Positions 4,715 to 23,601 are shown, counted from the first letter of the stretch. The stretch: DNA of 32,593 bases from an uncultured Nitrospirota bacterium (GCA_964592995.1 CAZQIT010000029.1:1-32593); one strand, 5' to 3'. Program-made: numbers and translations. The notes: generated by a model from the sequence alone, not told the origin.

Positions 4715-6081
4715 GGGGCGGCTCCCTCTCCGACTTTGACTTCGGGTGCTGCGAAAGAAGCCTTCTTGGGAATGAGGATGCCGATGCTCTTGTTATCGTC
4801 GGTCAGGTATATCCTGGCAACCCGTTGAATGTCGGCGGACGTAACCTTACGGATATTTTCCACAAAATGTTCCGCAAAGGGATATCCTGCCCCCGTAGTC
4901 TCGGCCATGCCAATCTGCATCCCCCGATAAAAATTGGAATCGGCGCTCATGATCCATTTGGCCTCAATCTGGTTTTTCGCCTTCTGTATTTCCGGGTCCG
5001 AAGCTGCCTCAGATCGGACCCGCTCAATCTCGGCCTGCAGCGCAGTCTCCAATGCCGCAACGGATGTTTCCGACGCTTCTTTTGGATGGGCCATCGCGTA
5101 GAAATAGAACAAGTCCGGGTCGGTGGTCAAGCCATCGTAATGCCCGCCCGCATCTAGGGCAATCTGTTGCCGATAGACCAGGCTTTGATAGAGCCGCGTG
5201 CTCTTGCCGCCGGAGAGGATTTGCGAAAGAACCGTCAGCGGATAGAGGTCGGGGCTTTGATGGTTGGGCGCATGATAGGCCGCAAAGACAAACGGAATCT
5301 GCGCTTCGCGCGTTACCCGAAGACGACGCTCCCCGATCTGCGGCAACTCCGGAGAGACCGATTGCGAAGGAACTTCCGCAGCCTTTGGAATCGCCCCAAA
5401 CGCCTTTTTGATTTTGGGCCGCAAGGTCTGGGTGTCAAAGTCGCCGACGACAACAATCGTCGCGTTTTGTGGAATGTAATACTTTTTGTAATAACGATAG
5501 GCGTCGTCGCGAGTTAACCGATCCAGATCGCTCATCTGGCCGATGATCGGCTGGCGATAGGGATGAATCAGAAACGAAATGGCGTAGAGCTGCTCGATCA
5601 GGAAAGCGTAGGGGTCGTCGTCAGTACGGGTGCGGCGCTCCTCTTTGACCACGTCCCTCTCCAGCAAAAACTCGGCAGGATCAAGCAGCAGGTTTTGCAT
5701 CCGGTCGGCCTCCAACGCCAGCGAAAGATCAATCCGGTCGGCGGCAAAATTCTCGAAATAGGCGGTGTAATCCCGTCCGGTGAAGGCATTTTCCGTGCCG
5801 CCGTTTTTGGCCACGATCCGCGAAAATTCCCCTTTGCCATATTTCGGAGTCCCCTTGAACATCATGTGTTCGAGCAGGTGCGACAATCCACCCTGACCCG
5901 TCACCTCATTGCGGGAACCGACCTTGTACCAGACCTGAAAGGTCACCACGGGCGCCTTATGTTCTTCCATAAGGACGACCTTGAGGCCATTTTCCAGCGT
6001 AAAGGACTCCATCGTGCCCGCATGAAGATCGGACAGGACGAAGAAACCGAAGAGCAGCGTAAAGATGATTTTGCGTGTCAT
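4711..6081 (-). CDS. M16 family zinc peptidase (HxxEH present)
   Basis: Inverted zinc motif GLSHLLEHMMFKGT. Start moved to ATG 6081 (MTRKIIFTLLFGFFVL signal peptide). The 38 upstream codons of the tracked ORF merely translate the duplicated intergenic repeat. Confidence 0.85.
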   Translation of the reverse strand: MTRKIIFTLLFGFFVLSDLHAGTMESFTLENGLKVVLMEEHKAPVVTFQVWYKVGSRNEVTGQGGLSHLLEHMMFKGTPKYGKGEFSRIVAKNGGTENAFTGRDYTAYFENFAADRIDLSLALEADRMQNLLLDPAEFLLERDVVKEERRTRTDDDPYAFLIEQLYAISFLIHPYRQPIIGQMSDLDRLTRDDAYRYYKKYYIPQNATIVVVGDFDTQTLRPKIKKAFGAIPKAAEVPSQSVSPELPQIGERRLRVTREAQIPFVFAAYHAPNHQSPDLYPLTVLSQILSGGKSTRLYQSLVYRQQIALDAGGHYDGLTTDPDLFYFYAMAHPKEASETSVAALETALQAEIERVRSEAASDPEIQKAKNQIEAKWIMSADSNFYRGMQIGMAETTGAGYPFAEHFVENIRKVTSADIQRVARIYLTDDNKSIGILIPKKASFAAPEVKVGEGAAP

Positions 6082-6082
6082 G

Positions 6083-6177
6083 GCGTTTGTTTCATCCGTT
6101 TTGCAACATCGTTTTTTGAAAACGCTCCAATAGGGTGCGTGATCTGAACCCGATGCTCGGCATTTTTCGCGGATGTG
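6083..6177. repeat. direct repeat copy 1 (hscA-peptidase spacer), 95 bp
   Basis: Identical to 7192..7287 except ccaataggg vs ccaaacaggg. Contains the small palindrome cgtttt-ttg-aaaacg. Confidence 0.95.
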
Positions 6178-6210
6178 GTGTTCTCTTCTGCACAAAGAAA
6201 CAACTTATTA

Positions 6211-6231
6211 CAGCATCGGTGAGCAATGCTG
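6211..6231 (-). terminator. possible terminator hairpin after vapC
   Basis: cagcat-cggtgagca-atgctg (6-bp stem). On the minus strand it is followed by the T-rich taataagttgtttctttg. Weak stem, so tentative. Confidence 0.3.
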
Positions 6232-6296
6232 CTTTACCCCCCTCTCCTCCCCCTAATTTGCCCACAGATTCTGCTGAAGAGCCAGTAAATTGACCT

Positions 6297-6722
6297 CTAC
6301 GAGGAAAGACGCCCTTTCCTGTGGGGCTTGCCTTCAGGAGGGGAAACCGGATACAGACGTAAGTCAGAGATGGGGAAGTGGACGCGATTGTATGTAACAA
6401 TGACCATGCTGTGAATCTTTGCCGTTGCGGAGAGGAGGAGGTCTGGGAGGTCAACCGTAACCCCTTTGGCGCGCAGTGTCCGATAATACGCTGCTGCTTG
6501 ATCCGCGATTTCCGCAGTCAGATTAAAGTGTGTCAGGGCGTTTAAGAATGCTTCGGTAACTTCTCTTTCCTGTAGGCGCATTCCAGCCTTTACTTCGAAA
6601 AGGGTGATGACAGAGCAGGACAGCGTTTCTTCTCTGTGGATTTTTTGCATTAACTCCACAGTCTTACGATCTCCACGCAAAAACCAGATGATGACATCGG
6701 CATCTAAAAGCAGATCAGCCAT
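6297..6722 (-). CDS. vapC: PIN-domain toxin (VapC family)
   Basis: Start at ATG 6722 (MADLLLDADVIIWFLRGD...), a typical VapC N-terminus with conserved acidic residues. 8-nt overlap with the upstream antitoxin gene. Lower GC than the surroundings. Confidence 0.8.
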   Translation of the reverse strand: MADLLLDADVIIWFLRGDRKTVELMQKIHREETLSCSVITLFEVKAGMRLQEREVTEAFLNALTHFNLTAEIADQAAAYYRTLRAKGVTVDLPDLLLSATAKIHSMVIVTYNRVHFPISDLRLYPVSPPEGKPHRKGRLSS

Positions 6723-6987
6723 GCAGTTGCTCAATTCTCTTGCCTGTATCTTTATGGATTTCTGAAAGCTGATGATGAACATCTTTCAGGGTCGAAAGCT
6801 CTGGATACTGTGCATCTTTCCATGCCCCTGCCGCTTTCTCCATGGCCCGCGTCAAATGCTGTCGTTTTAACTCTTTCTGTGTAGCCGCTACAATAAACTC
6901 ACTCCGTTTTCTTCGGGAAACAATCTGGTCAACCATCACAAGAAGATTTTCCGGAAATACAACCTGCATTTTTATTTTTCTATCCAT
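6715..6987 (-). CDS. vapB: ribbon-helix-helix (CopG-like) antitoxin
   Basis: 90 aa. N-terminal beta-strand/helix pattern KMQVVFPENLLVMVDQIVSRRKRSEFIVAATQKELKR. Overlaps the vapC start. RBS AAGGAAG lies upstream. Confidence 0.7.
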   Translation of the reverse strand: MDRKIKMQVVFPENLLVMVDQIVSRRKRSEFIVAATQKELKRQHLTRAMEKAAGAWKDAQYPELSTLKDVHHQLSEIHKDTGKRIEQLHG

Positions 6988-6999
6988 GGTTCAGCTTCC

Positions 7000-7176
7000 T
7001 TATGTTTTATAGATTTTAGCATACCATATAGGTTGATACATATCAAGCCTTATAGGCTGTATTATCATCATGATAACCGTATCTTCAATGAGCACTGGGA
7101 CACGGGTTCCCACAAAGACCAGCGTACCGCCGAGAATCTCTGGATCACGATGAACTGCGGAAGCATTTCCACTCAT
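7000..7176 (-). pseudogene. relic of a DUF433-type antitoxin gene
   Basis: Unlisted 58-codon minus-strand ORF. It begins MSGNASAVHRDPEILGGTLVFVGTRVPVLIED, matching the DUF433 core (dP.i.gG.P.i.GTRipV). The sequence then degenerates and runs through the vapB promoter. Confidence 0.45.
7018..7046 (-). promoter_or_regulatory. cassette-internal sigma70-like promoter with palindromic operator for vapBC
   Basis: Minus strand reads TTGATA-17 nt-TATGCT, about 30 nt upstream of the vapB ATG. The -35 element is one arm of the perfect palindrome TTGATA-tg-TATCAA (7033..7046), a plausible RHH antitoxin operator. Confidence 0.5.
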
Positions 7177-7191
7177 ATCATTCTACCTATA

Positions 7192-7287
7192 GCGTTTGTT
7201 TCATCCGTTTTGCAACATCGTTTTTTGAAAACGCTCCAAACAGGGTGCGTGATCTGAACCCGATGCTCGGCATTTTTCGCGGATGTG
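7192..7287. repeat. direct repeat copy 2 (hscA-peptidase spacer), 96 bp
   Basis: See 6083..6177. Begins 21 nt downstream of the hscA stop codon. Confidence 0.95.
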
Positions 7288-14077: not shown

Positions 14078-14308
14078 CTTTTTCGGAACGGCCTGTAGAG
14101 AACACGTAAACGGTCCGGTTTCATATCGGAAGATGAGATGGGTTCGCTGTGCTCACGAAAATGCTGTTCCGGAACTGAAAGGGGTAGAAATTATTGACGC
14201 GCTCTCGTATGATTACGCTGTTACTGTAATTGCGGACGCGACCTCAATCTGTGTCGTTGGACGCGGTGGGTTCGTCCGGGCGACGTTTTGGGAAGCTTGG
14301 AGGGTTAT

Positions 14309-14992
14309 ATGAACGCATCTGATTCTATCCGCGTGCTAGAGGATGAAATCCTTCAGCACGACGCAGTGCAGCACCCCTTCCTCAAGCGGTTTGCCTCCGA
14401 GCCACTGACGCTGGCCCAAATCCAGACCTTTGGCCTTCAGCACTATCAACTGGTCAAAATTTTCGTCAACTACATGACGAACCTCCTGCCGCGCATTCCC
14501 GACCCGGAGGCAGCCGCACTCTTTCGGGTGGTTTTCGACGACGAGTTTGGCCAGCACACCATCTTCCGCAGCCATCCAGCGCTCTATCGCAATTTCCTTC
14601 GGAGTCTGGGGTTCGACGACGGGGCGTGGGGGCGGGTGGCGGCGCTTCCTGTGGTGTCGGCGTTTGTTGAGGGCCACATGCGGCTGACGCGGGATGAAGA
14701 CTTTCTGGTCGGCTTGGGGGCGGTGGGGCCGGGACATGAATTTTCCATCCCGACGATGTTCGGATACCTCGTTTCCGGACTCCAGCGCAACACGCAACTG
14801 ACCGACGAACAGGTGGAGTATTTCACGCTGCACATTGTCGAAGACAAGGAACATGCCGTCGTCTTCAACAAACTGATTGTTCGCCACACGCAGGATGAGG
14901 CGGCTCAGTCTCGCATCCGCGATGGCGCAATGCGCTCTCTGGCCCTGCGCAAAACCTTCTGGGACGGCCTTTCACGGGTGATCTTCCCATGA
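14309..14992 (+). CDS. haem-oxygenase-like fold protein (iron-containing redox enzyme family, PqqC/CADD-like)
   Basis: Start at ATG 14309, preceded by GGAGG with a 5-nt spacer. Sequence HPFLKRF...LAQIQTFGLQHYQLVKIF...DEFG...HPALYRNFLRSLG...HIVEDKEH is typical of this helical family. Confidence 0.55.
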   Translation: MNASDSIRVLEDEILQHDAVQHPFLKRFASEPLTLAQIQTFGLQHYQLVKIFVNYMTNLLPRIPDPEAAALFRVVFDDEFGQHTIFRSHPALYRNFLRSLGFDDGAWGRVAALPVVSAFVEGHMRLTRDEDFLVGLGAVGPGHEFSIPTMFGYLVSGLQRNTQLTDEQVEYFTLHIVEDKEHAVVFNKLIVRHTQDEAAQSRIRDGAMRSLALRKTFWDGLSRVIFP

Positions 14993-15014
14993 GATTACCC
15001 GTTGTGGAACCGAC

Positions 15015-15503
15015 ATGCACCTCCTGATTGACGGCTATAACTTGATCGGGCGACAGGGAGGGCTGCGCGGGGACATTGCAGGCAAGCGCGATCGGCTTCT
15101 GGCCGATCTTTCAGAATATCTTCAGATCAAAGATCACGATATTATCGTCGTTTTTGACGGATGGAAATCGGGACATCCGGTCGAATACGAAGAGCGGATC
15201 GGCGGCGTCACCATCATCTATTCCCGTCGCGGCGAACAGGCCGACGCCGTCATTGTGCGCCTGGCCGAGACGATGGGCAACACCTGTGCGGTGGTCACTT
15301 CCGATCGGGAGGTGCAGCGGTCGGTTGCGCCATTTGATTGCGCCGTCCTCTTTTCGGGTGAGTTTGACCTGCGGTTGCGGCAGGCGCTGTCGGGCGAAGC
15401 CGCACCTTTGCCGTCACCGTTGCGTCCAGGCCCCAAGTCGGGGAATCCCGCCCGTCGTCCCAAGTCGGAACGCAAACGGCAATCTCAATTGAGGCGGTTT
15501 TAA
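15015..15503 (+). CDS. NYN-domain / YacP-like predicted RNase
   Basis: 162 aa. MHLLIDGYNLIG ... VVFDG ... VVTSDREVQ pattern with a basic C-terminal tail. Confidence 0.65.
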   Translation: MHLLIDGYNLIGRQGGLRGDIAGKRDRLLADLSEYLQIKDHDIIVVFDGWKSGHPVEYEERIGGVTIIYSRRGEQADAVIVRLAETMGNTCAVVTSDREVQRSVAPFDCAVLFSGEFDLRLRQALSGEAAPLPSPLRPGPKSGNPARRPKSERKRQSQLRRF

Positions 15504-15513
15504 GGGCTCATCC

Positions 15514-17631
15514 ATGAATAACATCCACAAAAAGGGCAAACGCGTCGCCGAACTCTTCGTGGAGGTTGGCGTGGAGGAGATGCCGTCGGGCGTGATGGCC
15601 GACACGCTCCGGCAGTTGCGGGAGACGAGCGAGCGGCGACTTGCTGCCGATGCCCTGCCGTTTGATTCGGTGCAGACCTTCGGGACCCCTCGAAGGCTTA
15701 TTCTGGTTGTCTTCGCGCTGGCCGCGACGCAGACGACGCGCGCCACGCAGGTGATTGGCCCGCCCAAACGCGCAGCCTTTGACGCCGCAGGTCACCCGAC
15801 GCCCGCCGCCATCGGCTTTGCCAAATCGCAGGGGGTGGCGGTGGAGGCGCTTGCGGTGATCCAGACGGAAAAGGGGGAATATCTCGCCGTCGAAAAGACG
15901 ACGCCAGGCCAGCCGACGGCGGCGCGCCTCCCGATCCTGCTTCCCGAAATCCTTGCCAGCCTGACCTTCCCAAAGTCGATGCGCTGGAATGAGACCGCCG
16001 TGGCCTTTGCCCGCCCCATCCGGTGGATCGTGGCAATGTACGACGGCCAGCTTGTCCCATTCCAATATGCGGGCGTTGCTTCCGGCGACCTCTCGCGCGG
16101 CCACCGCATCCTCTCGCCAAAGCCTTTCCGCGTCACCACGTTCGCCACGTATCAAAAGGAGATGGCGCGGCGACAGGTTGTGATCGACCCAAAAGCCCGC
16201 TACGACCAGATTGTTGCCGAGATGGCCGCGCTGGCCGATGCGGCAGGCGGGATCGTGAAGGGGGACGACGACCTGCTCTGGCAGGCGGCATGGACCACGG
16301 AGTATCCAAGAGCACTCTGCGGGGCGTTTGACCCCCCGTTTCTGGACTTGCCGCCGGAGGTCATCACCACGGTGATGAAGGAGCATCAGGGCTACTTCCC
16401 GCTGTACGAAAACAAAGAAGGCGGGAAACTGCTGCCGGCGTTTATCACGATTGCAAACATTCAGGCCAGCGACATGGATGTGATCCGCCGGGGCAACGAA
16501 CGGGTCTTGCGCGCCCGCCTGGTGGACGCCCGCTTTTATTACGATCAGGATCGGAAGGTGAAACTGGCCGACCGGGTAGACGCCCTCCGGCAGGTGACGT
16601 TTCAGGAAAAACTGGGCACGCTGCACGACAAGATCGAACGGGTGGCTGGGCTGTCTCTTGTCTTGGCGCAAACCGTGCCGAACGCGCCGCCGGAGGCGCT
16701 GCTCCGCGCCGCACTCCTTTATAAATGTGACCTGCTGACGGGCGTGGTGCGAGAGTTCCCGTCGCTTCAGGGGGTGATGGGGCGGATTTATGCCCTCCGT
16801 GATGGGGAGTCTTCCGATGTGGCCGCCGCCATCGAGGCACATTACCGGCCCCGCTTTGCCGGGGATGTGCTGCCGACCGACCCCGTCGGACGTTACTTGT
16901 CGGTTGCCGATAAACTGGACACGATTGTGGGCTGCTTCGGTGTGGGCCTCATCCCCAGCGGTTCCGAAGACCCCTACGCCCTGCGGCGACAGGGGATGGG
17001 CGTGGTGCAGATTTTGGCGGTCCGTGGAGTGAAGAATGGCGCGATTATTGCCGCAGCCGTGCAGCAATACGAAAAACAGGACAAGTTTTCCGGTGCGGGG
17101 GTGGCCGAGGCGGTGGGCGAATTCCTGAAAGGCCGGATGGCGTCGTGGCTTCAGGCCCGTGACATGCGGCATGATCTGGTTCACGCCGTCTTAAACCGGC
17201 CCGGCCTGTCGGCTGCGCAGTTCCCAGACGATCTCTGTGGTACAATGGCGCGCGTCGAGGCCCTGGTTCGGGCCGCAGGGCAGCCCCACTTTGACCGGCT
17301 TCTAACCGGGGTAAAACGGGCCAGCCGCATCCTGCCTGCGGGATTTTCCGGCGAGGTCGATCCGGGGTGGATCAAAGACGAGCCGGAGGTGGCGCTCTTT
17401 GACGCAGTTGTTGAGGCCGAAACAGCGATAGACCAGGATCAGAAACAGCAGTTCAACGCGGTTTTGCAGACACTGGCGGCGTTGGCGGAGCCGCTGGCTT
17501 GCTTCTTCGACGGTGTCTTGGTGATGGCCCCCGACGAGACCCTCCGCCGCAATCGTCTGGGCCTGCTTTTGCGGGTGCGCCGCCTGTTTGACCGCGTCGC
17601 CGACTTCTCCAAAATCGAAGGCGGGGGATGA
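15514..17631 (+). CDS. glyS: glycine--tRNA ligase beta subunit
   Basis: 705 aa. N-terminus LFVEVGVEEMP, GTPRRL, and a C-terminal anticodon-binding region. No glyQ is adjacent. Confidence 0.9.
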   Translation: MNNIHKKGKRVAELFVEVGVEEMPSGVMADTLRQLRETSERRLAADALPFDSVQTFGTPRRLILVVFALAATQTTRATQVIGPPKRAAFDAAGHPTPAAIGFAKSQGVAVEALAVIQTEKGEYLAVEKTTPGQPTAARLPILLPEILASLTFPKSMRWNETAVAFARPIRWIVAMYDGQLVPFQYAGVASGDLSRGHRILSPKPFRVTTFATYQKEMARRQVVIDPKARYDQIVAEMAALADAAGGIVKGDDDLLWQAAWTTEYPRALCGAFDPPFLDLPPEVITTVMKEHQGYFPLYENKEGGKLLPAFITIANIQASDMDVIRRGNERVLRARLVDARFYYDQDRKVKLADRVDALRQVTFQEKLGTLHDKIERVAGLSLVLAQTVPNAPPEALLRAALLYKCDLLTGVVREFPSLQGVMGRIYALRDGESSDVAAAIEAHYRPRFAGDVLPTDPVGRYLSVADKLDTIVGCFGVGLIPSGSEDPYALRRQGMGVVQILAVRGVKNGAIIAAAVQQYEKQDKFSGAGVAEAVGEFLKGRMASWLQARDMRHDLVHAVLNRPGLSAAQFPDDLCGTMARVEALVRAAGQPHFDRLLTGVKRASRILPAGFSGEVDPGWIKDEPEVALFDAVVEAETAIDQDQKQQFNAVLQTLAALAEPLACFFDGVLVMAPDETLRRNRLGLLLRVRRLFDRVADFSKIEGGG

Positions 17632-17636
17632 CGGCG
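17559..17636. repeat. direct repeat copy 1 (functional glyS 3' end plus 5 nt)
   Basis: 17571..17636 is identical over 66 bp to 18211..18276. Similarity extends leftward to 17559/18198, with cttttg vs ctactcg between. Confidence 0.95.
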
Positions 17637-17942
17637 GATGCGCTCATACGAATCAAACGCGTCGTTCTTGCTGGAAGGTATGCCTTTAGCGAAAAGGCGC
17701 GTTTGGAAATGGAGGCGGACGGTCTCGCCGAGATGGACGTCGCCGAGTCGATTCTCAATGCTGTTGCGATTTACAAGAAGATCCGATCACGGAGTCCGTT
17801 TCGTCGCGGGACAAGCGAATACCTCTATGTCATTCAAAGCGTCAATCTGGAGGGTTTGGCCATCTACACCAAAGGGAAATTGGTGCGAGAGATGGACGAA
17901 GATGTCTACTACTTTCTCGTCTCATCCAAGCGCGCCTTGTAA
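17628..17942 (+). CDS. MqsR-like (or DUF4258-like) toxin
   Basis: 104 aa. IKRVVLAGRYAFSEKARLEMEADGLAEMDVAESILNAV aligns by eye with the MqsR N-terminal region. Toxin-first gene order with a Zn-ribbon partner. The ATG overlaps the glyS TGA (ATGA). Confidence 0.55.
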   Translation: MTADALIRIKRVVLAGRYAFSEKARLEMEADGLAEMDVAESILNAVAIYKKIRSRSPFRRGTSEYLYVIQSVNLEGLAIYTKGKLVREMDEDVYYFLVSSKRAL

Positions 17943-17955
17943 AGGGTAAGTACTG

Positions 17956-18198
17956 ATGAACATCATACAATGCCCAACGTGTGGCAGTGATCAAATAAAA
18001 AAGGTCCGTCGAGATTGGACCAGCACGTATCAAGGCAAGAGATACCGGGTTCCCAATCTGGAATATTATGACTGCCCCGATTGCGGCGAGAAGGTGTATG
18101 ATCGGCAAGCGATGCAAAAAATCGCGGCCTATTCGCCCGCGTATGCCGGACGGCAGGAGACACCGGTTTGGGTGAACCCTCCCGCAATGGCAGGCTAG
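17956..18198 (+). CDS. YgiT-type zinc-ribbon protein (MqsA N-terminal-domain-like antitoxin, no HTH domain)
   Basis: 80 aa. CPTCGS...(30 aa)...CPDCGEKVYD is the MqsA/YgiT zinc-finger pattern. Lies immediately downstream of the toxin-like gene. Confidence 0.6.
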   Translation: MNIIQCPTCGSDQIKKVRRDWTSTYQGKRYRVPNLEYYDCPDCGEKVYDRQAMQKIAAYSPAYAGRQETPVWVNPPAMAG

Positions 18199-18276
18199 GG
18201 CCTGCTACTCGCGGGTGCGCCGCCTGTTTGACCGCGTCGCCGACTTCTCCAAAATCGAAGGCGGGGGATGACGGCG
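18198..18276. repeat. direct repeat copy 2 (non-functional duplicate of the glyS 3' end)
   Basis: See 17559..17636. Starts at the last base of the Zn-ribbon gene stop codon. Confidence 0.95.
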
Positions 18277-18352: not shown

Positions 18353-18556
18353 ATGTTATCACTGGAGTTGCAGCCAGAGACGCTTCTTTTTCCACGTGGC
18401 GTGTTTGAAACGGCAGAGACGAAGGAAGACTTGGAAGATTGGCTTGTGTCGCAAAACCCCGCCTTCTTAAAACGAATGCGGAGGGCCAAGCGCAGTGACC
18501 TTCAGGGTCATGGCAAGGACTGGTCCCAGGTCAAAGAAGAGCAATGTATCGCGTAA
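18353..18556 (+). CDS. putative antitoxin of the downstream RelE/ParE toxin
   Basis: 67 aa, acidic, preceded by RBS AAGGAG. 13-nt overlap with the toxin gene. C-terminal LEDWLVSQNPAFLKRMRRAKRSD resembles many small antitoxins. Confidence 0.5.
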   Translation: MLSLELQPETLLFPRGVFETAETKEDLEDWLVSQNPAFLKRMRRAKRSDLQGHGKDWSQVKEEQCIA

Positions 18557-18825
18557 TTTTCCTGCCCGATGCGGAAGAATCGTTTAAGAAACTGGACAAA
18601 TCAATCCGATTAAAAGTTGCCGACAAGATCGACTGGATGCAAGAGAATGCGGATCAAGTCATCCATCATCCGCTCACGTCGTTGCCGGACGATCTTCGGG
18701 GGTTATGCCGGATGCGCGTGGGCGATTATCGGGTGCTTTATTGGGTTTATGCTCGACGAAAACAGATTACTGTGTATGGGATTGAGCACAGAAGCCAAGT
18801 CTATCGCCCGCTGAAAAGGAAGTGA
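18544..18825 (+). CDS. RelE/ParE-family toxin
   Basis: 93 aa. MYRVIFLPDAEESFKKLDKSIRLKV ... LCRMRVGDYRVLYWV ... ITVYGIEHRSQVY is the classic RelE/ParE pattern. Confidence 0.8.
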   Translation: MYRVIFLPDAEESFKKLDKSIRLKVADKIDWMQENADQVIHHPLTSLPDDLRGLCRMRVGDYRVLYWVYARRKQITVYGIEHRSQVYRPLKRK

Positions 18826-18863: not shown

Positions 18864-18999
18864 CAATGCTGACCAAACTCCAAATCGAAAACTTTCGCTG
18901 TTTTCGCCAGTTGACGGTCGATCCGCTCAAGCGGATTAACCTGATCTGCGGCCAAAACAACAGCGGGAAAACGGCCCTGCTGGAGGCGCTGTTCGCCCT
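18864..18999. repeat. direct repeat copy 1 (ATPase 5' end, truncated copy)
   Basis: About 136 bp and about 96% identical to 19507..19642. This copy keeps the native AGGAG RBS (18857..18861). Confidence 0.95.
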
Positions 19000-19048
19000 T
19001 TTCCAAGATCGAAGGCGGGAGATCGTGAAGATGAATGGGAGGTCCTGA
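18866..19048 (+). pseudogene. truncated duplicate of the ATPase N-terminus (Walker A only) fused to 16 unrelated codons
   Basis: [45 protein letters not shown] equals residues 1-45 of the 19509 ORF with a single K/R change. It then reads [15 protein letters not shown] and stops. Confidence 0.85.
18999..19023. repeat. relic of the glyS 3' end at the left edge of the hicBA insert
   Basis: ttttccaagatcgaaggcgggagat vs glyS 17605..17629 ttctccaaaatcgaaggcgggggat, 22 of 25 identical. In another frame it still reads FSKIEGG. Confidence 0.85.
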
Positions 19049-19254
19049 TGCAATTTACAATCACAATGGACCGTGATGAAGATGGCGTTTGGATTACCGA
19101 ATGCCCCTCTATCCCGGGCTGTGTCAGTCAAGGGACAAGCAAGGAAGAGGCGCTAAACAACATTAAAGAAGCGATCCAATCATGTTTAGAGGTCCGCGCT
19201 GAACGTGGACTTCCCTTGACGATAGAAACCCGGCAGGTGGCGGTGGTGGTTTAA
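19048..19254 (+). CDS. hicB: HicB-family (UPF0150) antitoxin
   Basis: 68 aa. FTITMDRDEDGVWITECPSIPGCVSQGTSKEEALNNIKEAI is the canonical HicB N-domain. TGATG overlap with the preceding ORF. Confidence 0.75.
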   Translation: MQFTITMDRDEDGVWITECPSIPGCVSQGTSKEEALNNIKEAIQSCLEVRAERGLPLTIETRQVAVVV

Positions 19255-19484
19255 TGCCGCCATTACCGACACTGCGTGGTCGCGATGTGGTTCGAGTTTT
19301 TGAAAGGTTCGGATGGAACGTTGTACGACAGGAAGGCAGTCACATTATTATGGTCAAGGTGGGACACATCGCGACACTGTCCATTCCAAACCATAAAGAA
19401 GTCGCGAAGGGGACATTGCGCAGCCTCATCCGTTCGTCCGATCTGACTGTCGCCGAATTTACCGAAATATTGAGAACCGTTTAA
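19254..19484 (+). CDS. hicA: HicA-family (YcfA-like) mRNA interferase toxin
   Basis: 76 aa. LRGRDVVRVFERFGWNVVRQEGSHIIM ... IPNHKEVAKGTLRSLIR. TAATG overlap with hicB. Confidence 0.8.
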   Translation: MPPLPTLRGRDVVRVFERFGWNVVRQEGSHIIMVKVGHIATLSIPNHKEVAKGTLRSLIRSSDLTVAEFTEILRTV

Positions 19485-19506: not shown

Positions 19507-19642
19507 CAATGCTGACCCGACTCCAAATCGAAAACTTTCGCTGCTTCCGCCAGTTGACGGTCGATCCGCTCAAGCGGATTAACCTGATCTGCGGCCAAAA
19601 CAACAGCGGGAAAACGGCCCTGCTGGAGGCGTTGTTCGCTCT
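19507..19642. repeat. direct repeat copy 2 (5' end of the intact ATPase gene)
   Basis: See 18864..18999. No Shine-Dalgarno sequence lies upstream of this copy. Confidence 0.95.
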
Positions 19643-20495
19643 ACCGCGTCCCCAAGAGGGCAGCAAGATGCCTGAATTACTCCACACGTTCCGCGTCCAG
19701 TCATCTGGTCCTTCTGCTGAGGATGTGTCTTGCTTGTTTTATGACAAGGACAAAAACGCCATGGTTAACATTACCGGCTGGATGGATCAGTCTCCCATTG
19801 GCGTAGAGGTTCGGTACGCCTCACAACCAGAACCATCCGTGGCGTCATCCGATAACACAGCATGGCAACCAAACAGGATCATCATCAACTCAGAGGGCCT
19901 ATTCCAGAGAACCCATTATTCAGGGGCGGGGTATAAAGTTCGTGTATTTCCAGCGCATTCTTCCAAGCCAGAAGAAGACACGTGGGACTTTAGTAGGGCC
20001 ATTCTCAAAAAGCAGAAAGATCGGATTGCGAAACTGATGGGCAAAATTGAACCTCGTTTGGTCTCAATTGAAGCGTTGCAGATTGATCGTAATCGCCCTC
20101 CGCGACTGTACGCCGACATGGGCTTGAGGGAGATGATTCCGATTACACACCTCGGGCAGGGGTTTGGGCGATTGCTCAACATCTACTCGGGGATTTTGGT
20201 GGAAGATGCCAACGTGCTGTTGATCGACGAGATTGAGAACGGCCTTCACCACAGCGTGTTGCCGACGGCGTGGAAAGGGCTGATGGCTGCGGCGCGGGAC
20301 ATCGGCGTCCAAATTTTTGCCACGACCCACAGTTGGGAGTGCATCCGTGCCGCAAACGCGGTGGTCAACGAGGCCGGAGACAGCGACGACTTCCAGGTGA
20401 TCCGTCTGGACCGCATCGGAGACGACATCAAGTCCACGACCATTGATAAAGAAATGATTGAGACGGCAAAGGAATTCAATCTGGAAATGCGTTAA
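19509..20495 (+). CDS. ABC/SMC-type P-loop ATPase (AAA_15/AAA_21-like, defence-island type)
   Basis: 328 aa. Walker A GQNNSGKT, signature-like HLGQGFGRLL, Walker B VLLIDEIENGLH, H-loop FATTHS. No fused nuclease domain was recognised. Confidence 0.75.
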   Translation: MLTRLQIENFRCFRQLTVDPLKRINLICGQNNSGKTALLEALFALPRPQEGSKMPELLHTFRVQSSGPSAEDVSCLFYDKDKNAMVNITGWMDQSPIGVEVRYASQPEPSVASSDNTAWQPNRIIINSEGLFQRTHYSGAGYKVRVFPAHSSKPEEDTWDFSRAILKKQKDRIAKLMGKIEPRLVSIEALQIDRNRPPRLYADMGLREMIPITHLGQGFGRLLNIYSGILVEDANVLLIDEIENGLHHSVLPTAWKGLMAAARDIGVQIFATTHSWECIRAANAVVNEAGDSDDFQVIRLDRIGDDIKSTTIDKEMIETAKEFNLEMR

Positions 20496-20610
20496 CGGTT
20501 AAATGGGTTCTTTGTGCGATGTGATGGGTTGTCGATCCATCAAGCAAAAAGAAGGAGCGGATATGACGCAGGATTTGCAACAGATGTCGGTAAATTGAGG
20601 AGTACTGGAC

Positions 20611-20826
20611 ATGCAAGCCTATCGGATTGAAACGGTTCTAAAACAAGATGGGATCGTGACCCTCGACAACCTGCCGTTTCAGGCGGGGGAATCGGTTGAA
20701 GTGATTGTACTGGTCCAGCAGGCGAGGTCTGGCCACACGGGTGGCTATGCGCTACGGGGCACGCCCATCACATACCTTGATCCCCTGGAACCCGTGGCCC
20801 AGGCAGATTGGGAAGCCCTGCGGTGA
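20611..20826 (+). CDS. small antitoxin-like protein without a cognate toxin gene
   Basis: 71 aa, RBS GAGGAG. N-terminal beta-rich segment (ETVLKQDGIVTLDNLPFQAGESVEVIVL) and C-terminal DPLEPVAQADWEAL motif, as seen in small proteins that normally precede PIN toxins. The next gene is ppdK. Confidence 0.35.
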   Translation: MQAYRIETVLKQDGIVTLDNLPFQAGESVEVIVLVQQARSGHTGGYALRGTPITYLDPLEPVAQADWEALR

Positions 20827-20850
20827 TTGTTTATTTAAGGAGATCTTTTC

Positions 20851-23601
20851 ATGGCGCACGTTAAGATAAAAAGCAGTCGCGTGAAGGCAGCGGTGGCGCA
20901 ATCCAGCCCCGCAGCGAAGGCCGCAGGGCAAGCTCCCCAGAAGTACGTCTACTATTTTGGGCCGGGGAAGGCCGAGGGCCGGGGCGACATGAAGGAATTG
21001 CTGGGCGGAAAAGGGGCGGGGCTGGCCGAGATGACTCGCTTGGGCATTCCGGTGCCGCCGGGGTTTACGATCACCACCGAGGCGTGCGTCCAATTCTTTG
21101 CTGCGGGCAACACGTTTCCTGCGGGCATGTGGGAAGAGGGGATGACAGGCTTGCGTCGCGTGGAGAAGGCCACGGGGCAGACCTTCGGCGATCCGACCCA
21201 TCCCCTGCTCGTCTCCGTCCGCTCCGGCGCGCGCGCCTCCATGCCGGGCATGATGGACACCGTGCTCAATGTCGGCCTCAACGATCAAACGGTCGCAGGA
21301 TTGATTAAAAAGACGCAAAACGCCCGCTTCGGCTACGACGCCTATCGGCGCTTCATCGCCATGTTCGGCAGCGTGGTCATGGGTGTCAAACGCGAGCACT
21401 TCGAGAAGGCGCTGGAAGATAAAAAGGCCGCGCTGAACGTTCATCAGGACACGGATCTATCCGCCGACGCCCTGGCTGATCTGGTGGCGACCTGCAAGAA
21501 AATCGTCCTGACCGAGACCGGCGTCCCCTTCCCCGACGATCCCATGACGCAGCTTCGGATGGCCATCACCGCCGTTTTTAGTTCCTGGTGGGGCCAGCGG
21601 GCGGCCACCTATCGGCGGCTCAACCACATCCCCGACGCCTGGGGGACGGCGGCGAGCGTGGTGGCGATGGTCTTCGGAAACTTGGGTGAGACCTCCGGCA
21701 CCGGCGTCGCCTTCACGCGTGATCCGTCCACCGGTCAACGGCGTTTCTTCGGCGAGTTTTTATTTAACGCGCAGGGTGAGGACGTGGTGGCGGGCATCCG
21801 CACGCCGCTTCCCATCGACGCGCTGCGAAAGCGGCTTCCTTTGGCCTACCGCGACCTGATGGCAGTCTATAAAAAACTGGAAGCGCACTATCACGACATG
21901 CTCGATATTGAGTTCACCATCCAGGACGGCACGCTCTACATGCTTCAGACCCGCGTCGGCAAGCGGACGGCGGCGGCGGCGGTACGGATTGCGGTCGATC
22001 TGGTCAAGGAGCAGCAGATCAGCAAAGAGACGGCGCTGCTGCGGATTGACCCGGTGTCGCTGGATCAACTGCTTCACCCCAGGGTCGATCCGAAGGCGAC
22101 GGCGCAGGTCATTGCCAAAGGGCTTCCGGCCTCGCCGGGGGCCGCCATCGGCACGGTGGTCTTCTCGGCGGAAGCGGCGGAGCGGATGAAGGCGCAGCAG
22201 CAGAAGGTGATCCTGGTGCGGGCGGAGACGTCGCCGGAGGACATTGGCGGGATGCACGCTGCAGAAGGAATTCTCACGGCGCGCGGCGGGATGACCTCTC
22301 ACGCGGCGGTCGTGGCGCGCGGCATGGGCAAGTGCTGCATCGTGGGATGCGGGACGCTGGTGATCGACGAAGCGGCGCGCACCGTGCGGGCGGGGGAGGT
22401 CATGGTGCGGGAGGGCGAGACCCTCACGCTCAACGGCTCCACGGGCGAGGTGATCCTGGGTGAAGTCGCCCTGATTGAGCCGACGCTGGGGCCTGCCTTT
22501 AAGACGCTGATGTCGTGGGCCGACGCCGCGCGGACGATGAACGTTCGCGCCAACGCCGACACGCCCCGCGACGCCAAAGTGGCGCGCGGCTTCGGCGCCG
22601 AGGGGATCGGCCTCTGCCGCACCGAGCACATGTTTTTTGAACCCGACCGGATCAAGGCAGTGCGCGAGATGATCCTCTCCGACGGCATTGAGGGGCGCAA
22701 GCGTGCCCTGGAGAAATTACTGCCGATGCAAAAAGGGGATTTCCTGGGCATCTTCCGCGAGATGCGCGGTTTGCCGGTGACCATCCGGCTGCTGGATCCG
22801 CCGCTGCACGAATTTCTCCCTCAAACAGACGAAGAGCTGGCGGGGCTTGCGTGCGAGATGGGTGTGTCGATTGAGACCCTGCGCGAGAAGAACCAGAGTC
22901 TGCACGAGTTTAATCCGATGCTGGGGCATCGTGGCTGCCGACTGGGGATCACCTTCCCCGAAATCTATCAGATGCAGGTGCAGGCCATTTTTGAGGCCGC
23001 CTGTGAGCTGGCCGCGCGGAAGGTGGTGGTAATGCCGGAGGTGATGATTCCGCTGGTGGCCGACACGAGAGAGTTCTCCAAAATGCGCGCCCTCTGCATG
23101 GAGACGGCGGACGCAGTGATGACGCGCTACAAACGCCGGGTCGCCTATACCATCGGGACGATGATTGAGCTGCCGCGCGCGGCGGTGGTGGCCGATCAGA
23201 TTGCAAAAGAGGCCGAGTTTTTCTCGTTTGGCACCAACGACCTCACGCAGACGACCTATGGCCTCTCACGCGACGACGCGGGGCGTTTTTTGCCCGAATA
23301 TGTTCGGCAGGGGGTTTTCGATCAGGACCCGTTTGTGGCCATCGACCAAGAGGGGGTCGGGGCGCTCATGCAGATGGGGGTCGAGAAGGGCCGCGCCACC
23401 CGCGCTGACCTAAAGGTCGGCATTTGCGGCGAGCATGGCGGCGAGCCAAGTTCGGTGGAGTTCTGCCACCGGATCGGCCTCAACTATGTGAGTTGTTCCC
23501 CCTTCCGCGTGCCGATTGCGCGCCTGGCCGCAGCACAGGCTGCGATCCGGTCGAAGGCAACGGGGAAGAAGAGCGACCAGGATCATCGCGCCACGGTGTA
23601 G
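20851..23601 (+). CDS. ppdK: pyruvate, phosphate dikinase
   Basis: 916 aa. KYVYYFGPGKAEGRGDMKELLGGKGAGLAEM, phosphohistidine region GGMTSHAAVVARG, and a C-terminal PEP-utilising TIM-barrel domain. RBS AAGGAG. Confidence 0.95.
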   Translation: MAHVKIKSSRVKAAVAQSSPAAKAAGQAPQKYVYYFGPGKAEGRGDMKELLGGKGAGLAEMTRLGIPVPPGFTITTEACVQFFAAGNTFPAGMWEEGMTGLRRVEKATGQTFGDPTHPLLVSVRSGARASMPGMMDTVLNVGLNDQTVAGLIKKTQNARFGYDAYRRFIAMFGSVVMGVKREHFEKALEDKKAALNVHQDTDLSADALADLVATCKKIVLTETGVPFPDDPMTQLRMAITAVFSSWWGQRAATYRRLNHIPDAWGTAASVVAMVFGNLGETSGTGVAFTRDPSTGQRRFFGEFLFNAQGEDVVAGIRTPLPIDALRKRLPLAYRDLMAVYKKLEAHYHDMLDIEFTIQDGTLYMLQTRVGKRTAAAAVRIAVDLVKEQQISKETALLRIDPVSLDQLLHPRVDPKATAQVIAKGLPASPGAAIGTVVFSAEAAERMKAQQQKVILVRAETSPEDIGGMHAAEGILTARGGMTSHAAVVARGMGKCCIVGCGTLVIDEAARTVRAGEVMVREGETLTLNGSTGEVILGEVALIEPTLGPAFKTLMSWADAARTMNVRANADTPRDAKVARGFGAEGIGLCRTEHMFFEPDRIKAVREMILSDGIEGRKRALEKLLPMQKGDFLGIFREMRGLPVTIRLLDPPLHEFLPQTDEELAGLACEMGVSIETLREKNQSLHEFNPMLGHRGCRLGITFPEIYQMQVQAIFEAACELAARKVVVMPEVMIPLVADTREFSKMRALCMETADAVMTRYKRRVAYTIGTMIELPRAAVVADQIAKEAEFFSFGTNDLTQTTYGLSRDDAGRFLPEYVRQGVFDQDPFVAIDQEGVGALMQMGVEKGRATRADLKVGICGEHGGEPSSVEFCHRIGLNYVSCSPFRVPIARLAAAQAAIRSKATGKKSDQDHRATV

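Follow-up and report, generated by a model that had tools for sequence, protein, structure and literature searches.

The stretch of DNA analysed here, 32,593 nucleotides from an uncultured Nitrospirota bacterium (GCA_964592995.1 CAZQIT010000029.1:1-32593) and referred to at its full length as the window, carries 3.2 kb of low-GC DNA between glyS, which encodes the glycyl-tRNA synthetase beta subunit, and ppdK. This islet begins directly behind glyS with a toxin-like open reading frame (ORF) and a zinc-finger ORF, after which the 3' end of glyS occurs a second time; there follow a 67-aa ORF with a ParE/RelE toxin, a 60-aa ATPase fragment, a 26-nt remnant of yet another glyS tail, HicB and HicA, an intact AbiLi/PDC-M38A-like ATPase gene, a 71-aa ORF and finally ppdK (Table 1). 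The DNA between the first two glyS tails is a horizontally acquired, promoter-less, two-gene toxin-antitoxin (TA)-like cassette, and it constitutes the newest layer of an addiction and defence stack built up between glyS and ppdK. A previous reading made from the nucleotide sequence alone (the sequence-only reading) had already described this cassette as foreign DNA inserted at the glyS stop codon and bracketed by glyS 3' ends, a view supported both by the repeat and by the fall in GC content from 0.63 to 0.51. To that description can now be added the third glyS-tail remnant as well as two further cassettes of the same architecture within the window.

A TA-like cassette between two glyS tails

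The two glyS tails share a core of 66/66 identical positions (17571-17636 vs 18211-18276) at a spacing of 640 nt, with the glyS stop codon inside the repeat, and an exact match of this length cannot arise by chance. When the comparison is extended leftwards to 17559/18198 (gggcctgct), the sole differences are ttt vs actc, i.e. CTT TTG vs CTA CTC plus one extra base; the identical repeat and these differences are both as the sequence-only reading had reported them, as are the overlap of the toxin ATG at 17628 with the glyS TGA and the placement of the first three toxin codons, ATG ACG GCG, inside the repeat. The same reading had let copy 2 begin exactly where the antitoxin ends, leaving 561 bp of foreign DNA. 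The antitoxin stop codon does lie at the position given, but a degraded part of copy 2 extends farther to the left: positions 18176-18210 align with 17539-17570 through three indels (net +3) by BLAST and a shuffle test, with a local alignment score of 25 vs a maximum of 24 in 2000 shuffles. Since copy 2 thus reaches left to 18176, it is old glyS-tail sequence that supplies the last seven codons of the antitoxin, and the insert proper is perhaps as short as about 539 bp. Neither BLAST nor the shuffle test found an extension of the repeat to the right of the 66-nt core. Local direct repeats of at least 40 nt at 85% identity numbered three in the 32.6-kb window and zero in 80 related glyS loci (1.05 Mb).

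At the junction, the beginning of the toxin gene has been replaced with host DNA. Members of the toxin family typically begin M-S-D-I-L-V-R-I-K-R vs M-T-A-D-A-L-I-R-I-K-R in the window, and at the glyS stop the related locus L001 reads GGC TGA GGGCGG, which aligns with GGA TGA CGGCG in the window; because of these two observations, the ATG ACG GCG start can be ascribed to the host. The toxin gene would thus have lost its own start codon, ribosome-binding site (RBS) and promoter, whereas other copies of the cassette have 36-520 nt of upstream sequence of their own. Its expression most likely proceeds by read-through transcription and translational coupling from glyS. With the toxin gene fused in this way to the stop codon of glyS, an essential aminoacyl-tRNA synthetase gene, toxin expression would be tied to that of glyS.

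A promoter-like TTGACC-16-CAAAAT motif was also observed inside both glyS-tail copies (17588-17615 and 18228-18255), and the corresponding sequence in the L001 tail is identical, although matches of this type are no more numerous than in shuffled sequences. If the motif were real, the duplication would supply a promoter to the cassette as well as to the displaced genes downstream.

Of the two cassette proteins, the antitoxin-like one is the more readily classified. It matches PF15731 with 35.1 bits (cut-off 30) over profile positions 2-58 of 131 and TIGR03831 with 34.1 bits (cut-off 20.2), while its 35.1 bits against TIGR03830 fall under the 61.8 cut-off, and the motifs CPTCGS and CPDCGE form a YgiT-type N-terminal zinc finger. 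The C-terminal helix-turn-helix (HTH; XRE) domain of MqsA is missing from this 80-aa protein according to the profile search, and the ten full-length family members inspected are similarly short (73-91 aa). The toxin belongs to a family with members of about 103 aa (1777 word-index matches at 75-84% identity; 395 clusters at 50% identity) that source records name only "hypothetical protein"; no homologue was found in the plasmid collection, and the closest ones, P0002 and P0006 (80-84% identity), are not behind glyS but in other contexts. Across many contexts the toxin and zinc-finger genes are consistently paired. An AlphaFold2 (AF2) model of the toxin (pLDDT 86.9) comprises three helices followed by a four-stranded sheet, and its best Foldseek matches are weak, namely a Salmonella TA toxin (7vd7_A, E 0.015, template modelling (TM) score 0.52-0.57) and BrnT (3u97, target-normalised TM 0.61).

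These features bear upon the label "mqsRA-like" given by the sequence-only reading. As in MqsR/MqsA of E. coli, the toxin gene comes first and the antitoxin has an N-terminal YgiT-type four-cysteine zinc finger, and to this extent the label holds. Unlike MqsA, the cassette antitoxin lacks the C-terminal HTH, and the toxin represents a separate, unannotated family. Identity of the toxin with MqsR was rejected, as it had no profile match in Pfam, NCBIfam or PADLOC, no match in PDB sequence searches with either the single sequence or a profile, and no MqsR entry among the 50 fold-search matches listed. A better description would be a RelE/BrnT-fold-like toxin with a zinc-finger antitoxin, the activity of the pair being predicted.

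Table 1. Features of the glyS-ppdK islet and of the VapBC cassette, in window coordinates.
Feature	Position	Strand	Remarks
VapBC pair bracketed by a repeat of about 98 nt of the M16 peptidase gene leader and start	6080..7287	-	PIN domain
glyS (glycyl-tRNA synthetase beta subunit)	15514..17631	+	705-aa ORF, PF02092; conserved anchor gene
glyS-tail repeat copy 1, functional tail (last 31 codons + 5 nt)	17539..17636	+	perfect core 17571-17636
Toxin-like ORF, 104 aa	17628..17942	+	ATG overlaps glyS TGA (ATGA); first 3 codons host-derived
Antitoxin-like ORF, 80 aa	17956..18198	+	YgiT/MqsA-type CxxC...CxxC zinc finger, without HTH; TAG 18196-18198
glyS-tail repeat copy 2, displaced tail	18176..18276	+	perfect core 18211-18276, scrambled left part 18176-18210
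Second TA pair: 67-aa ORF and 93-aa ParE/RelE-family toxin	18353..18825	+	PF05016 E 9.9e-9, TIGR02385; no flanking repeat of its own
Displaced start of AbiLi-like ATPase gene (RBS and codons 1-45)	18864..18999	+	136 nt, 96% identical to 19507-19642
Third, diverged glyS-tail remnant, directly upstream of hicB	18998..19029	+	glyS frame: F S K I E G G R S stop
HicB (68 aa) and HicA (76 aa)	19048..19484	+	PF15919 E 1.5e-8, PF07927 E 5.1e-18
Intact AbiLi/PDC-M38A-like AAA ATPase gene	19507..20495	+	PF13175, PF13304, PADLOC AbiLi E 2e-51; first 136 nt = repeat copy 2
ppdK, conserved gene at far side of islet	20851..23601	+	PPDK Pfam domains; 89% identity to L099 ppdK

The two further cassettes follow the same plan with different host sequences. 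HicBA is bracketed by the duplicated start of the ATPase gene, the copies of which differ by five synonymous codon changes and one K/R exchange. Codon 45 of the displaced ATPase fragment is fused, with about 2 nt of microhomology, to the third glyS-tail remnant, which over 18998-19023 matches 17604-17629 at 23/26 positions (88%), with 2/3 of the differences synonymous. As this remnant abuts hicB, hicBA must once have sat directly behind a glyS gene. With 643 nt, the HicBA repeat has nearly the same period as the glyS repeat (640 nt). The VapBC cassette, located between an M16 peptidase gene and an hscA-like gene, is flanked by repeats (6080-6177 / 7189-7287) that are 97% identical. The three repeat pairs are mutually unrelated in sequence, the inserts measure approximately 0.5-1.0 kb each, and all flanking direct repeats exceed the 30 bp used as a criterion by Furuta et al. 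2010, i.e. 66 nt perfect or 98-101 nt with the degraded part for glyS, 136 nt for the ATPase start and about 98 nt for VapBC. Three different TA families are therefore each bracketed by duplicated ends of host genes within a single window.

The glyS-ppdK site in relatives and the same architecture elsewhere

The best GlyS relatives are other Nitrospirota at 71-73% identity, followed by Manganitrophaceae at about 57%; at 71-73% identity in GlyS, insertion junctions are not comparable base by base. In L001, ppdK follows glyS after 57 nt. In L099 (GlyS 73%), the order is glyQ-glyS-[antitoxin-ParE]-[intact ATPase]-DUF3226-ppdK, an arrangement equal to the window islet minus its two repeat-flanked cassettes; the window ATPase is 56% identical to its intact L099 orthologue, and the ParE pair occupying the same position in L099 is not homologous to that of the window. 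Behind glyS of L100 (2340-2560) lie decayed remnants of the 3' end of an L099-type antitoxin and of the first ParE codons, which indicate loss of a TA pair at the same hotspot. Each of L001, L099 and L100 has a single glyS tail, and L099 has a single intact ATPase gene start, such that the repeated sequences align with one copy each at sites that are empty or differently occupied in the relatives. The sequence-only reading had pointed to the region downstream of glyS as the place where relatives should vary, and so they do: since L001 has ppdK adjacent, L099 a different TA pair with an intact ATPase, and L100 only remnants, the glyS-ppdK site is, as judged from these gene orders, a variable hotspot.

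The architecture is not confined to the window. Among Joint Genome Institute (JGI) metagenome contigs carrying the toxin together with enough flanking sequence, a direct repeat of at least 30 nt surrounds the cassette in 15/51 (13/48 after dereplication, about 27% of this TA family in metagenomes), as compared to 0.33 expected from control loci, which are housekeeping glyS loci (binomial P about 1e-17). The bracketing repeats are the ends of many different host genes and range from 36 to 316 nt, including 3' ends with stop codons (L137, L177, L158, L108), promoters (L170) and 5' ends (L156, L119). For example, the 141-nt repeat of L081 is the start of an acetyltransferase gene, L083-L088 have repeats of 89 and 35 nt in six assemblies from six different samples, the 37-nt repeat of L137 is 100% identical, and the antitoxin ORF of L177 ends inside the duplicated tail, much like that of the window. 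In L108 (3869-5404) and L119 (227-1938), a host gene end occurs three times in register, a regulator 3' tail in the former and a gene 5' end in the latter, and its copies separate two different TA cassettes. The cassettes stacked together in this way are TA modules as well, of BrnT/BrnA, MNT-HEPN, PIN and CopG types.

Two observations from these surveys stand somewhat apart. A 927-bp unit recurs in a different context in L085 (3593-4519) and L088 (1767-2693) at 97.8% identity; its parts are the remnant of an antitoxin 3' end, which contains small palindromes, then a promoter, toxin and antitoxin, and cassette and flanking repeat move together in that lineage. Among the control glyS loci, one of the six weak repeat pairs encloses a TA-like pair, namely the 66-nt direct repeat of L019 (8344-9347), which brackets a small ORF and a DUF6036 nucleotidyltransferase.

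How the layers may have been added

We lean towards a recombination event of which one junction is homologous, in the conserved neighbouring gene, and the other illegitimate, displacing the old gene end, with addiction preserving the resulting repeats, and consider this explanation somewhat more probable than improbable. The incoming DNA would stem from a related strain already bearing a cassette beside the same conserved gene. One junction would form by homologous recombination inside that gene, whereas the other would be illegitimate and fall within the recipient's own gene end, yielding an intact glyS, then the cassette, then the displaced old tail. The likeliest route would be closure of the fragment into a circle by end-joining and subsequent integration via a single crossover, although a homology-facilitated illegitimate joint (homology-facilitated illegitimate recombination, HFIR) would yield an identical product. 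In E. coli, DNA with one-sided homology was mostly re-circularised and integrated by a single crossover, with 109-950 bp of the homologous stretch duplicated around the foreign DNA in 56/60 clones, and true HFIR deletions were rare in the same experiment (PMC3240628).

Two such events would account for all three repeat features behind glyS. The older event presumably met a resident glyS-hicBA-ATPase arrangement and brought tail 2, the ParE pair and 45 codons of the donor's ATPase gene, with donor ATPase codon 45 joined to the resident glyS tail 26 nt before the stop; its traces would be the ATPase fragment next to the 26-nt remnant, ahead of the resident hicBA and ATPase genes. The recent event would have brought tail 1 with the toxin/zinc-finger pair, the antitoxin 3' end being joined to tail 2 at 72-98 nt before its stop. 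The glyS site could thus be read as a dated stack recording two acquisition events, two displaced glyS-tail remnants and one displaced ATPase gene start. RecA-mediated recombination between direct repeats of 66-136 nt would excise the insert precisely, but such a deletion would remove a module of stable toxin and labile antitoxin and thereby harm the cell. Persistence of the repeats to 4-12% divergence would be most simply owed to the addictive cargo, which is in line with the stabilisation model reviewed in PMC2654758.

Several features of the repeats are consistent with this recombinational origin. The six codon differences in the ATPase repeat, five of them synonymous, are expected for two selected alleles, whereas under neutral decay we estimate a probability of about 0.008 if some 28% of random changes are taken to be synonymous. 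Each of the three stacks has its greater divergence in the copy farther from the intact gene (window 100% vs 88%; L108 96.8% vs 94.9%; L119 94.2% vs 91.6%), an order that would fit sequential addition. Furthermore, copy 2 of the glyS tail has a perfect right-hand part but a scrambled left-hand one, which mirrors the conservation profile among orthologues (the tail core is 95% identical in nucleotides to the L001 glyS tail) and does not fit uniform decay. Compared to L099, the differing sites of the ATPase repeat partition 3 and 3, a reciprocal-crossover pattern that is a hint only, given a chance probability of about 0.3.

A number of points weigh against this reading. No strain- or species-level relative was found in any collection searched, the best GlyS being 73% identical among 5.8 billion proteins; exact look-up of the window GlyS and toxin returned no record, and a glyS-tail 30-mer had 0 matches in JGI metagenomes. 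In consequence, the donor and recipient alleles are inferred rather than observed. The enrichment among metagenome contigs is measured against housekeeping loci and not against matched accessory regions. The sequence-only reading had regarded copy 2 as the displaced tail of a diverged glyS allele, which is plausible but unproven: the synonymous differences in the ATPase repeat (5/6) and in the glyS remnant (2/3) speak for it, while copy 2 itself offers only three substitutions and frame-breaking indels, its left part with three indels is not an intact coding tail, and synonymous and nonsynonymous counts between copies, pooled over other loci, stand at about 28 to 32, between the expectations of a two-allele and an in-situ model. 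Lastly, the first in-frame fusion of the toxin to a host ATG needs an additional, unobserved illegitimate event.

The most serious rival is duplication in situ of a 66-136-nt host segment through staggered breaks or template switching, with the differences between copies arising later. This was the original interpretation of the architecture in restriction-modification (RM) systems, where the mechanism is unknown (PMC2853133), and it is compatible both with the pooled counts just mentioned and with repeats that are 100% identical, such as those of L137 and the glyS core. We nevertheless consider it rather unlikely, since later decay would not be expected to confine the ATPase-repeat differences almost entirely to synonymous sites or to scramble only the left of copy 2, the glyS-tail remnant carried by the HicBA insert places its origin beside glyS, and in-register stacks at one gene end with age-ordered divergence would be unexpected from random breaks. 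The toxins, moreover, are predicted to be of RNase type and not DNA nucleases, and so the idea of double-strand breaks made by the cargo does not carry over from RM systems. An assembly artefact, in which the 66-nt repeat threaded an empty glyS-ParE chromosome and a separate molecule (e.g. a 640-bp circle), or two strains, into one path, must also be weighed, as the window seems to correspond to one metagenome contig of 32.6 kb, without a second record. A 66-nt exact repeat exceeds common assembly k-mer sizes. The junction between antitoxin and tail (18176-18211) must be present in reads under any scenario, the other two repeat pairs are imperfect (96-97%) and hence not products of k-mer collapse, and independent assemblies, made from many samples with various assemblers, show the architecture again, e.g. 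L083-L088, all of which makes an artefact very improbable.

Site-specific integration, with the glyS tail as attachment (att) site of a minimal cassette mobilised in cis by an integrase acting in trans, as in islands at tRNA genes and gene 3' ends, is equally hard to credit. Although the repeat covers a conserved gene's 3' end, a frequent location of att sites, and the tail core is strongly conserved between the window and L001, neither an integrase nor a transposase was found anywhere in the window, the three cassettes have three unrelated repeats with no shared att core, the repeats found elsewhere are the ends of many host genes and of widely varying length, and no end is conserved among the cassettes. 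In the more distant relatives that were compared, L001 apart, the glyS tail is not conserved in nucleotides, and together with the unrelated repeats this brings the att site close to refutation. Defined cassette ends were likewise rejected, as, over 66 dereplicated loci, no column or sequence ahead of the start codon of the toxin is conserved. Superficially, repeats of 60-140 nt, small promoter-less cassettes and the three-copy arrays of L108 and L119 also resemble chromosomal integron arrays with attC sites, and TA cassettes are common in superintegrons (PMC2654758). An origin as integron-type gene cassettes is nonetheless extremely unlikely and, for the window, refuted by the homology of the repeats to host genes: they are host coding ends that are single-copy in cassette-free relatives (the glyS tail in L001, L099 and L100; the ATPase start in L099), the glyS tail lacks hairpin potential (DNA folding z-scores of +0.47 and +0.99), and no integron integrase was found.

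A further and bolder proposal, which we regard as doubtful, is that gene-end repeats may make naked TA cassettes self-sufficient mobile elements needing no recombinase of their own. RecA would pop out a 640-bp circle consisting of the glyS tail, toxin and antitoxin; after transfer, the gene-end homology would target the circle to the same essential gene by a single crossover, regenerating the repeats and leaving the gene unharmed, whereupon addiction would select against loss of the cassette. Kobayashi's group is said to have proposed the same idea for RM systems as a 'virus-like life cycle'. If true, it would explain the spread of thousands of chromosomal TA loci and their pile-up behind housekeeping genes.

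Relation to known systems

The closest precedent for the architecture described here is the insertion of RM gene complexes with long target duplication (Nobusato et al. 2000, Gene 259:99; Furuta, Abe & Kobayashi 2010, PMC2853133). Such RM insertions have repeats of 46 to about 420 bp that often span start or stop codons, they lack mobility genes, and their mechanism is unknown, although DNA breakage by the restriction enzyme was proposed (PMC2853133; PMC3874152). The TA cassettes are likewise small addiction-type complexes with no mobility gene and variable long direct repeats (36-316 bp here), the repeats often lie across the start or stop codon of a neighbour that stays intact, and both systems exhibit fusions to host coding sequence and empty sites in relatives. 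Unlike the RM insertions, the cargo consists of type II TA pairs (YgiT-finger, HicBA, VapBC) and not of R and M genes, the stacks here are in register with age-ordered tail remnants, and one repeat pair has allele-like synonymous divergence. Measured against Furuta et al. 2010, the inserts are below 20 kb and carry no mobility gene, but restriction or modification cargo is absent; with TA in place of RM cargo, the cassettes therefore constitute a variant of the long-target-duplication class that lies outside its original definition. As the toxins are predicted RNases, of types that do not cut DNA, the DNA-breakage explanation offered for RM systems cannot apply to them, and by analogy the property shared by the two systems may be post-segregational killing rather than DNA breakage.

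Parallels also exist with the C-terminal displacement and orphan arrays of Rhs, contact-dependent inhibition (CDI) and type VI secretion system (T6SS) loci (Jackson et al. 2009; Kirchberger et al. 2017, PMC5361080). There too, a conserved upstream gene serves as homologous anchor, new toxin-immunity modules enter beside it, and the 3' pieces and protective genes of earlier modules are retained farther downstream; the proposed mechanism for those loci is homology-facilitated illegitimate recombination (PMC5361080). In those systems, however, the toxin gene doubles as the anchor and what is displaced is a toxin tip, whereas the present stacks consist of whole TA pairs anchored on an unrelated gene (the housekeeping gene glyS, and other genes elsewhere). 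Single-crossover integration of re-circularised DNA whose homology is one-sided, like HFIR (Amarir-Bouhram et al. 2011, PMC3240628; de Vries & Wackernagel 2002; Prudhomme et al. 2002), similarly produces one homologous and one illegitimate junction. The former study employed a laboratory construct and marker selection, in contrast to the natural occurrence, TA cargo and long persistence, as deduced from sequence, of the present cassettes.

In a limited search of the searchable literature, no description of this architecture was found for type II TA cassettes, and RM systems were the only ones with it in the literature found. Extending it to TA cargo moves the focus from "how it cuts" to "why the repeats survive", and the mobility of TA cassettes becomes a testable question. 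According to one review, the fixation of chromosomal TA cassettes "is not yet understood" (PMC2654758). The present observations point to a general route in which host recombination creates a duplication and addiction preserves it, and the signature around about a quarter of the related cassettes suggests how addiction modules spread and persist without mobility genes.

The remainder of the window is housekeeping DNA, comprising M16 peptidases, hscA, iscS, iscR, glyS, ppdK, a gltD-like gene, hom, thrC and aconitase, and scans of the window returned neither tRNA genes nor Rfam matches. At 19509-20850, the ATPase occurs without the DUF3226/PDC-M38B partner that follows it in L099 (9686-11229), and with this partner absent, the defence pair is possibly incomplete in the window. 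An ORF of 71/72 aa without a family match lies just upstream of ppdK both in the window (20611-20826) and in L100 (2577-2795), the two being 73% identical. Upstream of the islet, the window differs from its relatives as well: at 14288-15514, glyS is preceded by haem-oxygenase-like and YacP/NYN genes and not by glyQ, whereas L001 and L099 have the order glyQ-glyS.

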